This document shows, in pieces, positions 47,301 through 53,300 of a stretch of 64,000 nucleotides of DNA. Each line of letters begins with the position of its first letter. Positions within the stretch are counted from its first letter, which is position 1. The DNA is taken from positions 34,596,001 to 34,660,000 of the forward strand of contig OX597824.1 in the NCBI GenBank assembly GCA_951406725.2, given 5' to 3'. Origin of the DNA: Octopus vulgaris (Eukaryota). The notes under the pieces were generated by a model. That model made no database searches and was not told the origin of the DNA. It was given only the letters and a program-made list of their open reading frames with translations. Both the position numbers and the translations under genes were made by a program.

Positions 47301-50300
47301 ATTTTCTTAACTTTATTGGACAGTTAGAACAATTGTTTATACTATATACAAATATGGGTTGGATATAAGTACTACTTACCAAAAAGTTTTTGATTGAAAC
47401 TGAGTGTATCCTTTCCCTCAAGATTTTCACACCGTACTGAAAATTGAGACATCAGTGTTGACAATATACATCAGACACTAGGTGTAATATTTGAAAAAAC
47501 ACTCCAGTCTTGATGACTAAAGATATCGCAGAAAAATACAGGTGTTGCAGAAATATGATGTTTAACCTGTCTTCTTTGCTGATTATTTTTATTTTCTTTT
47601 TGTGGTTAAAATTATTTGTGAGTAACCTGCAGGTTATTTTCAAACCAATACTCAAGAAATTATAGAAATCTGACTCGCAAGATTTTATTCAATGTTATTT
47701 AATTCAAATTCAATAGTTTTAACTGTATTATAAATATAACAGGTGCTCTCCCTTAGTTTACTTTAAGATTTACGAGAAGGCAGGTGATAAAAGGCTTTTC
47801 CTAATTTCTTCTAAGAATTTACTTGTCTAGAAGAATGATGAGTATTAAATTTCTTAACTAATTCTTCAAACTGCTCCACGAAGAATTTAGGTAAATTACT
47901 TAAGGTCATGATGGAGAATACAGATAATGCAAGGGCGACTTCATGAGTTTGAAAAATAATTCACCACTTCAAGACATGCAGATGTGAGGACAAATTCTCC
48001 TGTAGCAGCTTAGATGTCACTAAAAATATATTGGAAATCCTGGGTTTTTATAAGCTACTTTGGAGTGTCCAGGAACTAAAATTTCAGAACAATTTTTGGT
48101 TGAAAACTAGGATGGCTTCGGTTAATATTTTCTTAGTCAATGAAAAAAATCTTTGTCTAAACTTGTATTTTAGCGTCAGAAGAAAATTTCCACAGAACAA
48201 ATCTAGTTGATTTCTGTTCAAAATATATCTGCTACAAAGTTTCTTACTACAGATGCGTGATCCTTCTGGGCCTAAAAAAAAAAAAAGGGACCATGGGCGC
48301 TAACGGGTTATGAGAAACGATAGTTTTGTAAAATCACATTGTGAGCTTGTTTTCGTTTTATATGGTGTAACATTTAAATAGTGTTATTGTCAGGCTGCAC
48401 TTAAGACTTGTTAACAGTTCACAAGGAAAATGCTGTACCTGTTAAGTATTATTAGCATTTGAATTGTTTATATAACATTTTGATAGTTTAGGAGCTAGGT
48501 GGAAAATCCACCCAAGAAAAGACAATTTTTAGCTTCAAAGAAAAAACACAGTCGCAATTAATATTCATAAAGATCTCACTGTGCAACACTGAAAAAAAGG
48601 ATGATAGTTTCAGTTATATTCTGTATTATGAGAGATAGTGAAAAAGAAAGAATAAGAGAAAAAGTGATATCCTACAATTATATATCTTTACATACATATC
48701 CATGTATAATCAGTCAATGAGAACGGGAATTTTTTTAGGCGTGAGTAGGCAAAATATTGCTAATTTGTGGTTCAAATTTTGTAATTCCTGAAATTGAAAC
48801 TGATTGCATTTATTAACATTGTTAAAATCGACCTATATATAGATTTCATATATTTCATCTTTGAAATTTTCTTTTTTTTTTCACATAAATAGTTTATGCC
48901 AAATACAGAAACCCATTGCTAGCAAATGATTTTTAAATATATCGTTCATGTTGGAGGCATTAATAAAAGCCAGTCAAGAGTAGTATATCTAATGGGGGTT
49001 CTGGGACAGATCACATGATAGGGCCCAGCCCATTTTCCACGTAGCCCCAGCTAACCTCAGGCTGCTTATACTCTGTTCGATTTTTTAATTAGACAAATGC
49101 TTGCCTTATGTATAAACAACAGTATGATTGAGTACAATTGATGCGAGTGGTTGGTCATTGGGTGGACCAAGCGCTGCGGGAAACAGTGCATCAATAAATT
49201 GTGTGGGGTCCACCAGGCTCAGTTATGCAGGAAGCTGGGATTGGAGCCAGATATACATCTAGTGGGGGTTCTGGGACAGATCACATGATAGGGCCCGCCC
49301 CACACCCCTGGCAGGCTCCAGCCCAATGATACACGTTTGTAATCCCAACCCTATACTATACTGAGTACCAATAGGAGCCTTATAGCTTCGCCATAGGGTG
49401 GACGACCCCTTGCCAGCCTAAGGGCTTATATTTACAGCAGGGGAGCTCGACAACCAGGGTTTACCCCAAACCCTAGAAGAGCTATAAATGACTCACCTCT
49501 GTGCCATTTCGGCCTGTAAGGCCTCATCAGAACACCTGGCAGGTATTAATGGCTCCTGGTAGTGTCAGTGTGCCTGAACCCATTCCATTACATGAATAGG
49601 CCATCAAGTGGGAGCAATCAGAGTTCCACATATAGGACTGTTGAGACTAACAGCCGAAAGACTGAGGCATTTACTCATCCTCACCATCTGTCCCTTCCTC
49701 TACCACAGACTCTAGCCTTTGAATGTCCTCCTTGACCAGCTGTATTTGAGCTTCCGTGGTTTCTAAGTCCATTGCTATTTTTTCAGCCTCTCTCTCTGTT
49801 TTCTCCTTTACTGTAGATGTCTTGTTCATTCAATCAGTTTTCTGGCCAATTCCGGACGTGCTTTGCCTTTAGACACGTTTGTTTCTTTGACTATTTGCTC
49901 CAAAAACGAGAAAACTCTCTTTTTTGGTCTGTCTACATCCATTTTTGTCATGCTATGATATTCCTGTCACGCTGATAGAAACTTGTCACGGTCTAGGAGG
50001 TGTGACAACTAATTTACAGCTTATATAAACCGACAGATTTAACAGCCCTTAACACCACTTAGCACCACTTAACAGCCCTTTTTGCTATCCATAGCTATGT
50101 ATATTCCGATACATTCTAGAAGGCTGATGCAGCTATGTGAAATGCTTGTGGTTTTTCACAGTGGGACAGGAAGTAAATAATAGCACAAGGCAGAATGTAA
50201 ACATGACGTAGTCATAGCACATGGCTGAACCAGGAAGTAAACATGACGATGTCATAACAGCAGTATGGTGGCCCAAAGGGAACATAAATAAAAAAGTGGC

Positions 50301-53300
50301 TGAAAGCTGTGATAGTTACAGAGTAACGGTGTATGGAAGCAGGCTGTGTGGTGCTCTTTTTGGCCTCATAAAGCAGATTATGGTGCAACCAACTTCTTTA
50401 TGAAACTGGCCCTGACCTCATCCCAGCCTCTCTGAATAAGCGAGTTTTTTTATCTCTTCATCCAACACCGGAGGTTTGACTGAAGCATGTGCTTTTTTAG
50501 CTCCAGCCTGGATCTCTGCCTTAATCTGATCATACTTGTTGAGCTCATCAAGAATGAGGCGAAACTCTTCATCTGAGATTCGACCATCCATGAGTGCACT
50601 CGAGACATGGTCTGCGATGGTATTCAGCTTGCTCTCTGCCAGGAGTCTGACCTCGTTATGCTTTTTGGCTTTGACTGTGAGACGGTGGCCAACAAACTTG
50701 CCTATTACTCCAAGGCTGCCACATGCCAGGGCCGCAATTTCAAGGCCCAAGACTACTGGGGCCACAATAATGGTAGACAGAAGGCCCACACCACCGATGC
50801 CCATCCCCAACACTGTGTCAACGCCATCGACAACATTGACCCCATGGCAGTATTCTTTGTACAGTTGACCCTGTTTGTCCCTCTCGTCTTCAAGTCGTTT
50901 TTTTTTCAGTTGTGAGACCTCTTGAAGCCAGTGGGATTGTGCAGTATCAACGGGATGAGGCAGATCTGGATAAAGTGTTGGCGTACAACTTTGTGTGATG
51001 TACACCTTGCCAGCAGATTTGCTGTTAACTGATGCGCCATCAGTTGGTGGAGCAGTTGCTTTCTTCATGATGTTATGGAGTAACTATGGCAAAGCTACAG
51101 GTCGAGTTCAATTAAAACGCAGTGAGGACATCAGCGTTGGTCGTAGCTGATCTGAAGCTTACTCGGTCGCATTGGGCAAGCTATAGTGGGGTCCCAAATG
51201 TATTAGTACCAGAGTATTGGTCTGAGGTTACCCCATATGATGTATGTTATCCCGTTAATCACAATATTGACCGTTGCTATGGTGCCCGGGGAAGTGGTAA
51301 CTCTGGTTACAGTTAGTCGCATTCGGTGAACCCTGCCTGCAGCCATCATGTTGTAGCCATGCATTGGTAGATTGGCACCAGCACCGAATGACCATTCATA
51401 TTGGCCCGTTCCAAGAGTGCCACTTCGTTCAGCCCACATGGTTATGAGAGGCTTCCGGCTATCGACATACCTTTTTGTGGCTACATCGTGTTCATCAACT
51501 GGAACGTCACCAAACTTCAAGTGAGTGCTGGGGACGGTGTCTCAGGTGGAGCTGACGGTGCCATTGTAGAAGCCTATGGCAACCACTTCTACATTCCCCT
51601 CGACTTCAAGCTTCTAGAGAGCCATATGCCCTTCTACCAGTCAGCACTTGTGATGATAGGCTCGAGTAGGAGTTGACATTTAACGACTACTCCCTCATGG
51701 TCCAGGCCACTGGAGACGCTAACCCCAGTTACTCCATTGAAAACATCTGCCTGGAGTATGACATGGTCACACTCCCTGAACTGGCAAGGATGATCCGCAA
51801 CCAGTACAGTGGCTGCCTGGCCATCCTGTACGACCGTGTACTGCGGTACCGCAAAATTGCAACCAACAAGAGCAACACTTTGTGGAACGTTAACCTGAAC
51901 ATGCCTGCTCGCTCGATGAAGGGCATTCTGTTGTTGTTTGAGGATGTTGCTGTGCATCAAGCCTTTCAGCGGGGCACCAAGGCCTTCTACAACCCCAAGA
52001 TAACCAACGTAGAAGTTACCATTGAGGGGGTCCCCAACAAGCTGTACAGCCAAGGCCTGCATGCATACCAGCAGTGGGTCGAAGCAAAGATGTTCTTTGC
52101 CGCCGGCTGCAAGTGACATCTCGAGGTGGCCATGGTCGTGAAAGACCTTGCTCTTAAAGACATGTCTTTGGGGTAGTTCTTGACCTCCAAGTTCACCCTC
52201 TGGCATGACCTCCACACCACGGACAATGACCAGCTCCATGGCAGTGGCCGGCGCATTGAGAATGCCAGCGAGGGTGTGACCATCCAGATCCTGAAAGCGG
52301 TAGAGGCCGTGGGTGCATTGAACGTCTACCTGTACATCATTATGGGCACACAGCTCAACATCGAAGATGGCCGATTCGTCTCAGTGTTCAACTTATACTG
52401 ATACTTCGTATCATCAACTCTTTCCACCGGGCCCCCACTCTGCAATTATTTGTGGAATGACCGGGTGTGGGAAAACGGTCTTCACGCTGGACCTCCTGGA
52501 GGGCCCCTATCGTAGTTTCTTTCGGCACATTGTGTGGATAATGTTTGAAATTTAGTTAGATTCATTTGTGTCATTTAAATAGCAGAGAACCCCAGTCGCC
52601 ACAACCTCCAGTGTTTGCAAATAACAGCAGAGTAGAGACATTCTCTATCAAAAAACTATACTGAGCTGAAGTTCAAGAAAATTCGGTGATTAATTTTTAT
52701 CATTCTATAGTGATCTTACAACAGTTGTGTATAGTAAATTATTATATTCATCTTCTGTTTCTTCATAAAAAACTATTTGGAACTAGCAAAGGTTAAGTGA
52801 ATGCAATCAAATGAAATGTAAATATCATCATCATCATTAACATCATCATCATCATTTAACATCCATTGTCCATGCTGGCATGGGTTGGACAGTTTTACCA
52901 GGGCTGGCAGGCTGGAGTCTCCACCAGACTCCAGTTTGATTTGGCATGGTTTCTACAGCTATATGCCCTTCCTAATGCCTACCACTCTGAGAGTATAATG
53001 GGTGCTTTTATGTGCCACTAGCATAGATGCCAGTTGCATGACACTGGTAGCTGTCACAACTAGGATTTCATGTAACTTGATGGGTCTTCTTCTCAAGCAT
53101 GGCATATTGCTGAAGGTCTTGGTCATTTGGCATTGCTCCGTGAGGACTGATTCTTGAAAGGCACAGGTGCTAGTTATACAACACCAGCACAGGTGTTAGA
53201 TATGTGACACCAGCATTGCACATTACCTCCATGAGGCCCAACACTCGAAAGGTGCTTTTTACATGTCACCAACATGGGTACCAGTTATGTGATTCTGGCA

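Follow-up and report, generated by a model that had tools for sequence, protein, structure and literature searches.

An IL-17-receptor-like gene of Octopus vulgaris with a Polinton-like DNA virus remnant in one intron

How did pieces of capsid, fibre and packaging ATPase genes come to lie inside an immune receptor gene, and what kind of virus do they represent? The question is raised by a remnant of 3.6 kb, from AGTAGT at 48979 to ~52540, in a 64,000-nt stretch of the Octopus vulgaris assembly GCA_951406725.2 (contig OX597824.1, 34,596,001 to 34,660,000, forward strand). This whole stretch is called the window, and positions refer to it unless another locus is named. The remnant is genuine and viral in origin. 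We consider it highly probable that it represents the dead germline fossil, with two deletions, of a ~14-kb Polinton-like double jelly-roll DNA virus, likely from the apparently protease-less "meldvirus" family whose type is the abalone MeldLC027333, and that it likely goes back to one integration followed by passive copying with the host gene.

Relatives of the remnant were taken from a metagenome scan, which gave 31 loci (L numbers below); the 12 longest or most informative of them were annotated. The features of the remnant and its host gene are as follows.

48979..49032, plus strand: terminus 1, a terminal repeat copy that begins AGTAGT; the true edge may be 2-4 bases further left
49085..49126, plus strand: AT-rich promoter-like stretch; by eye it aligns with sequence upstream of the Cys-rich ORF in L024 and L029, at the polymerase-side end of these relatives
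49124..49249, plus strand: start of a Cys-rich gene, ~42 codons with one stop, cut by terminus 2 (tblastx)
49254..49302, plus strand: terminus 2, the second terminal repeat copy in the same orientation, probably the left-end terminal inverted repeat (TIR)
49671..49950, minus strand: decayed small coiled-coil open reading frame (ORF), no homologue found
50113..50260, no strand: non-coding block conserved in relatives, possible enhancer or promoter (BLASTN)
50381..51068, minus strand: helical gene with two hydrophobic segments, likely the "Slatt" of Buck et al.; 216-codon open frame at 50421-51068
51115..51499, minus strand: fibre piece with one stop and a frameshift: C-terminal half of the gene, comprising the beta head and the last shaft repeat
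51495..51505, no strand: internal deletion junction, ~4 kb lost; fibre and capsid matches abut
51500..52401, plus strand: major capsid protein remnant, family residues ~135-430, with three in-frame stops and a frameshift
52394..52540, plus strand: first ~45-50 codons of an A32-like packaging ATPase, Walker A at ~52450-52475; the element ends here
57193..57933, plus strand: SEFIR-domain exon of the IL-17-receptor-like host gene (PF08357 above cut-off)

Most of these parts had been listed in an earlier note made from the letters of the window, and were seen again: the AGTAGT terminus at 48979, the decayed coiled-coil frame on the minus strand (broken at 49671-49829), the 216-residue membrane-protein ORF with two hydrophobic segments (50421-51068), the fibre-motif piece (~51115-51500), the capsid-like gene (51500-52401) and the Walker A motif of the ATPase. 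The Cys-rich fragment, the deletion junction at ~51500 and two sister copies described below are additional to that list.

What did the intact virus look like? Five gene pieces of the remnant are homologous to genes of intact relatives, and gene order was compared as well. On the left these relatives carry a terminal repeat, a two-transmembrane (2-TM) gene (minus), a fibre gene (minus) and genes of ~229 (minus), ~430 (plus) and ~450 (minus) amino acids; on the right follow the capsid gene (plus), the ATPase gene (plus), 4-5 small genes, the integrase gene (plus), the replicase gene (minus), a Cys-rich gene of ~100 amino acids (minus) and a terminal repeat. The left order of 2-TM gene, fibre, three genes, capsid and ATPase was seen in L018, L021, L022, L024 and L035, while L018, L022, L024 and L029 measure 12.9-14.5 kb. 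Neither pPolB nor an integrase was found within the window, as the earlier note had stated. The linkage to both was found in the intact relatives of 13-14.5 kb, and homology to relatives with capsid, ATPase, integrase and pPolB upholds the Polinton-like origin proposed there. Four of six long replicase ORFs match PF03175 (pPolB), one matches a superfamily 1 (SF1) helicase and one an endonuclease only; an rve match is present in all three integrases scanned. In the intact virus a protein-primed polymerase or a polymerase-helicase fusion would copy the linear genome starting at the terminal repeats, insertion would fall to the rve integrase, and packaging to capsid, penton, fibre and ATPase.

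The capsid piece gave the widest view of the family. Its open part of 148 amino acids matched 521 of 717 candidates, and the 120 capsid matches listed are 64-77% identical to it, many of them ~430 amino acids long. The family counts 2731 representative proteins at E <= 0.001 and has a Mytilus member; most capsid members have no match to a Pfam capsid model above cut-off. Neither the capsid piece nor the family profile had a relevant match among PDB sequences, the Atlas search returned unnamed clusters alone, and the IMG/VR scans gave two distant ATPases and no capsid relative. The fold was predicted for P0001, an intact natural relative that is 77% identical to the 148-residue piece, from 78 sequences (pLDDT 64.5). 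With this model Foldseek ranked the capsids of PBCV-1 and iridoviruses first (E 2e-15), and the VIA comparison with the PBCV-1 capsid gave Z 21.0 with a root-mean-square deviation of 4.4 over 334 aligned residues. On this model, the double jelly-roll that the earlier note predicted for the capsid holds for the family.

The ATPase piece in the window matches PF04665 at E 0.008 and is 65% identical to residues 6-54 of the L019 ATPase; PF04665 is above cut-off in L018, L022 and L024, and reaches 2.8e-11 in the intact ATPase of L018. Two loci from the ATPase scan, L049 and L050, do not carry a capsid of the remnant's family. The fibre piece is 47-59% identical to residues 134-272 of the L019 fibre; it has no match of its own in the Pfam and PHROG scans, and fibres of intact relatives match PF03906 (E 1e-11, T7-type tail-fibre repeats) and PHROG tail fibres (E 5e-17).

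Several relatives show arrangements of their own. A replicase of 1209 amino acids with an SF1 helicase in place of pPolB lies beside the same capsid module at L018:9967-13596, and L047 apparently holds a decayed version of it. An integrase ORF is missing from L022, at whose right end the 3' part of the 2-TM gene occurs again, inverted. A second A32-like ORF occupies the usual integrase position in L034. Finally, P0002, P0021, P0035, P0067 and the cluster of P0040 are viral capsids filed as hypothetical proteins in assemblies of Candidatus Thiodiazotropha (clam symbionts), where they are likely carry-over from the host genome.

How much of the virus has been lost? By the coordinates of the relatives, ~4 kb are missing internally, namely the N-terminal half of the fibre, the putative penton, two genes of ~430-460 amino acids and capsid residues 1 to ~135, and ~8 kb are missing on the right, beyond ATPase codon ~50. 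The ~229-residue gene, which resembles the Penton of Buck et al. by eye and has no Pfam or PHROG match, is among the deleted parts. The earlier note thought of a virion-forming element; formation of virions is impossible for the window copy, which lacks the putative penton and, of the capsid gene, the first third. The GC content of the element is 45-50% against ~30% on its left side, and its observed/expected CpG ratio is 0.43-0.52 against 0.73-1.14 in seven relatives. Such CpG depletion would be expected after long residence in a methylated genome.

If ~8 kb are missing on the right, then where is the second end of the virus? The earlier note reported a 42-bp direct repeat near the terminus and regarded the second TIR as absent. 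The repeat stands, with a length of 49 nt (48984-49032 and 49254-49302, 92% identity, offset 270 nt), and it is likely the second terminus itself. Both copies lie at the left of the element in direct orientation and are followed by differing sequence. L024 begins with the same CAAGAGTAGTATA run as terminus 1 and starts with AGTAGT, its ends forming a perfect inverted match of 99 nt; the polymerase end of L029 has GGGGTTCTGGGACA in common with terminus 1. The promoter-like stretch at 49085-49126 aligns visually with L022 and L018 more weakly than with L024 and L029. The Cys-rich piece matches L018, L022, L024 and L029 (tblastx E 1e-6 to 1e-5), and a Cys-rich gene of ~100 amino acids stands at the polymerase end in all four relatives that reach that end. 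Since the promoter-like stretch and the first 42 Cys-rich codons lie there, the first 270 bp appear to come from the polymerase end. Terminus 2 truncates the Cys-rich gene, and left-end sequence then follows. To judge from this order, both termini are likely present in tandem.

This arrangement may have arisen in two ways. It is moderately probable that 270 bp of the polymerase end were joined ahead of the left end, in the simplest case within a single rearranged genome; this would be the simpler course because no other copy of the family was found in the assembly. A nested insertion, in which one element entered the polymerase end of another and the remainders of both were then deleted, is possible and would account for two like-oriented termini of which terminus 2 cuts the Cys-rich ORF. 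However, it demands two insertions from a family of which searches of the assembly gave no further copy, and terminus 2 lacks a clean AGTAGT start, so we hold it for doubtful. Origin from a circle junction was rejected, as this would yield inverted copies and the copies are direct. Maverick/Polinton insertions produce a 6-bp target-site duplication. None was found here; the right end is deleted, and three older paralogues offer no alignable empty site.

Could the element be a standard Maverick (adintovirus) of Polintoviricetes group 1 or 2? We consider this unlikely. Terminal AGT, the TIRs of L024, pPolB and rve integrase in the relatives, and a 2-TM gene in common with a PF21738-type element on contig C2 all speak for it, as does the variable replicase of group 2 described by Bellas and Sommaruga 2026 (10.64898/2026.06.19.733378). 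In contrast, none of the family capsids matches PF21738 (0/7 and 0/49), whereas the separate Maverick capsid on contig C2 does. When 120 family capsids were compared by BLASTP with 120 capsids of PF21738 type, which is one of two adintovirus hexon classes, the best E was 0.005; hhalign of the family with this type gave a probability of 22% and 16% identity. A chromodomain at the C-terminus of the integrase is listed for adintoviruses in Buck et al. 2024 (PMC11071296). At E <= 0.05 it was absent from all three integrases scanned, while the control L049 matches Chromo at 2.5e-9. No protease match was found among the main ORFs of L018, L022, L024 and L029 (gaps below 300 nt, several ORFs unannotated, no positive control). 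The label of a typical Maverick is thus not supported for the family of the remnant.

To which group, then, does the family belong? In general outline it shares AGT-start TIRs, pPolB, rve integrase, A32 ATPase, double jelly-roll capsid and fibre with Mavericks/Polintons, i.e. adintoviruses, as these are presented in Starrett 2021 (PMC8502044) and Krupovic 2024 (PMC11161782), and differs from them in its remote capsid, its integrase without chromodomain and the protease not found. Meldviruses, as Buck et al. 2024 (PMC11071296) define them, combine adintovirus-like PolB and integrase with virion proteins resembling those of larger viruses. On the abalone reference map MeldLC027333 of that paper, Hexon and Fus contain exact family motifs, including LYDRVLRH of P0001 in Hexon; MeldLC027333 and Meld6842 appear by eye to have the family's hexon type along their whole length. 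PacK, Penton, Titinmem, Cah, Ayleven, integrase, PolB, the Cys-rich ORF and Slatt of MeldLC027333 likewise resemble genes of L018 and L024 by eye (13 of 16 entries compared). The meldvirus set of Slatt, Penton, Titinmem, Cah, Hexon, PacK, Ayleven, Fus, integrase and PolB was matched by eye in the intact relatives, and pieces of Slatt, Hexon and PacK occur in the window copy. In contrast to MeldLC027333, the window copy measures 3.6 kb, has rearranged ends and sits as a relic in a cephalopod-like host, and the relative L018 has a fusion of polymerase and SF1 helicase instead of pPolB.

The family was therefore likely annotated already by Buck et al. 2024, with fibre and the 2-TM "Slatt" as standard genes there. 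The earlier note took fibre and membrane protein for extra genes of a mollusc lineage; both belong to the standard left-end module of the family. SLATT genes are also drawn on the Hydra and Stylophora maps in Fig. S2 of Starrett 2021 (PMC8502044). Bellas and Sommaruga 2026 place ATPases of Octocorallia, Hydrozoa and Bivalvia outside the Maverick groups and relate them to Aquintovirus, and the present family has a bivalve (Mytilus) member. With the Polinton-like viruses described in Yutin 2015 (PMC4642659) it shares that no protease was seen.

The remnant lies between two exons of the host gene, a hydrophobic (transmembrane) exon near 45000-45160 and the SEFIR exon (PF08357 at 57193-57930, E 2.7e-5, above cut-off). 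An ILCR1 Ig-like domain (PF23608) was found at 35116-35340 (E 1.9e-6). The combination of ILCR1-type Ig domain, hydrophobic exon and SEFIR exon indicates an IL-17-receptor-like gene, which agrees with the immune receptor of the earlier note. That the intron is the last one, as also claimed there, would hold for the coding part of the gene, to judge from the paralogues: no further block common to all those compared lies between the transmembrane and SEFIR exons.

Has the element moved by itself since its insertion? Two sister copies, ~94 and ~187 kb downstream, are 98% identical to the window copy, with flanks of 97-99% and a SEFIR exon each. Near-identical flanks and a SEFIR exon at every copy indicate segmental duplication rather than transposition. 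An older paralogue is without the element; in the window, host sequence resumes by 52571. Queries with the capsid, the ATPase, the terminus and a middle gene found no other family copy among the best candidates that the genome searches score, and the integrase query gave three weak matches only. Of 24 listed sequencing runs, 13 hold at least 47% of the words of the remnant, under four organism labels.

At least six close paralogues of the SEFIR exon, 79-100% identical, lie at 34.59-34.95 Mb of contig C11 and at 9.14 Mb of C30 in genome G000, three of them in a ~94-kb tandem array. In run X4 (organism label B), contig depth over 51016-51618 is 3-5 times that of the rest of the element, which hints at extra copies. 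A decayed piggyBac-type transposase (PF13843) and a fragment of a long interspersed nuclear element lie in the host intron as well (45524-46631 and 53643-55170).

One gene of the remnant has kept its frame. The 2-TM frame is open over 216, 216 and 250 codons in the three copies, the window copy having a frame break near its 3' end, and in L018, L021, L022, L024 and L035 the gene at the left end is 35-71% identical to it. A 2-TM gene 42% identical also occurs in a separate decayed Maverick at ~139,509,000-139,517,000 of contig C2 in genome G000 (L013, L014), together with a PF21738-type capsid and traces of integrase and fibre. Three long helices are predicted for the intact protein of L024; the fold search found generic helical, BAR-like bundles with Z up to 12.9, within noise for helical models. 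None of seven members matches a Pfam SLATT model at E <= 2; the name comes from Buck et al. Five of the seven have a weak LeoBC match in PADLOC (best E 3e-5).

Was this gene recruited by the host? On such a reading the 2-TM (SLATT-like) gene would be a domesticated membrane effector from an animal Polinton-like lineage outside Mavericks, diversifying under selection between duplicated copies. Its frame is open while the capsid, fibre and Cys-rich pieces are broken, and within 50820-51109 the window copy has 19 differences from both sisters in 290 sites, against 13 in 3272 elsewhere (Fisher p 1.5e-13). The differences in this patch are nearly all non-synonymous, with 1 synonymous among 18 coding differences against 5.5 expected, and both variants of the patch are present in run X2. 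One-directional hypermutation of the patch was excluded by the mixed changes. Low-depth contigs cover the ORF in two runs of guessed RNA type from one study; three runs guessed to be RNA have one low-depth contig each, which was not counted as expression, and the run records list no RNA run among those that hold the remnant. However, the patch was picked after being seen, and an unconverted old tract accounts for the density of differences; each of the two variants agrees with relatives at 3 residues, and at 14 residues neither does. At a rate of ~6 shared breaks in 500 codons, 200 codons would stay open by chance in about one case in ten. The first hydrophobic segment is five residues short, the frame is broken close to its 3' end in two copies, and, the RNA label being a guess, intronic pre-mRNA or DNA would look alike. 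We find recruitment improbable; despite its one open predicted membrane-protein gene, the element is most likely an ordinary dead fossil. That the remnant is an assembly artefact or contaminant is very improbable, for although three near-identical copies on one contig could reflect over-assembly, every copy has private differences (including a capsid frameshift peculiar to the window copy), four runs from as many studies have contigs across the host-virus and internal junctions, and the deletion junction at ~51500 is bridged in runs X2, X7 and X9.

Four points weigh against the reading of a single, passively copied meldvirus fossil. The open 2-TM frame and its non-synonymous patch fit a purely neutral relic less well. 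The identity with MeldLC027333 and Meld6842 comes from exact motif matches and comparison by eye. With neither an empty site nor a target-site duplication, insertion by the integrase is something that we infer. The capsid fold was taken from a relative, 77% identical over 148 amino acids, and the confidence of its model is middling.

Two minor features complete the remnant. The conserved non-coding block at 50113-50260 matches L021 (E 3e-4), L046 and L047 (E 2e-6) in BLASTN, the block lying at L021:80-150 and L047:850-1030; its words TTCTAGAA, TGTGGTTT and CAGGAAGT presumably resemble heat-shock, RUNX and ETS sites. The coiled-coil ORF at 49671-49950 has no tblastx match in the 31 related loci and only weak coiled-coil Pfam matches below cut-off.

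In a literature search that covered mostly titles and the beginnings of abstracts, with subscription papers and bioRxiv supplements outside its reach, no description of this insertion was found for octopus or abalone Polintons/Mavericks. The term "meldvirus" appeared there only in Buck et al. 2024, and no paper naming LC027333 was found.

The remnant is an added member of a known, thinly described family, and as a relic it has modest weight: it likely adds the germline of a cephalopod-like host to the range of a family of animal Polinton-like viruses on which little has been written. An insertion common to related species would be datable. Bellas and Sommaruga 2026 (10.64898/2026.06.19.733378) noted an animal lineage outside the Mavericks, for which the family is a good candidate. 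Should the open 2-TM gene indeed have been co-opted, it would offer a new example of a domesticated viral gene.

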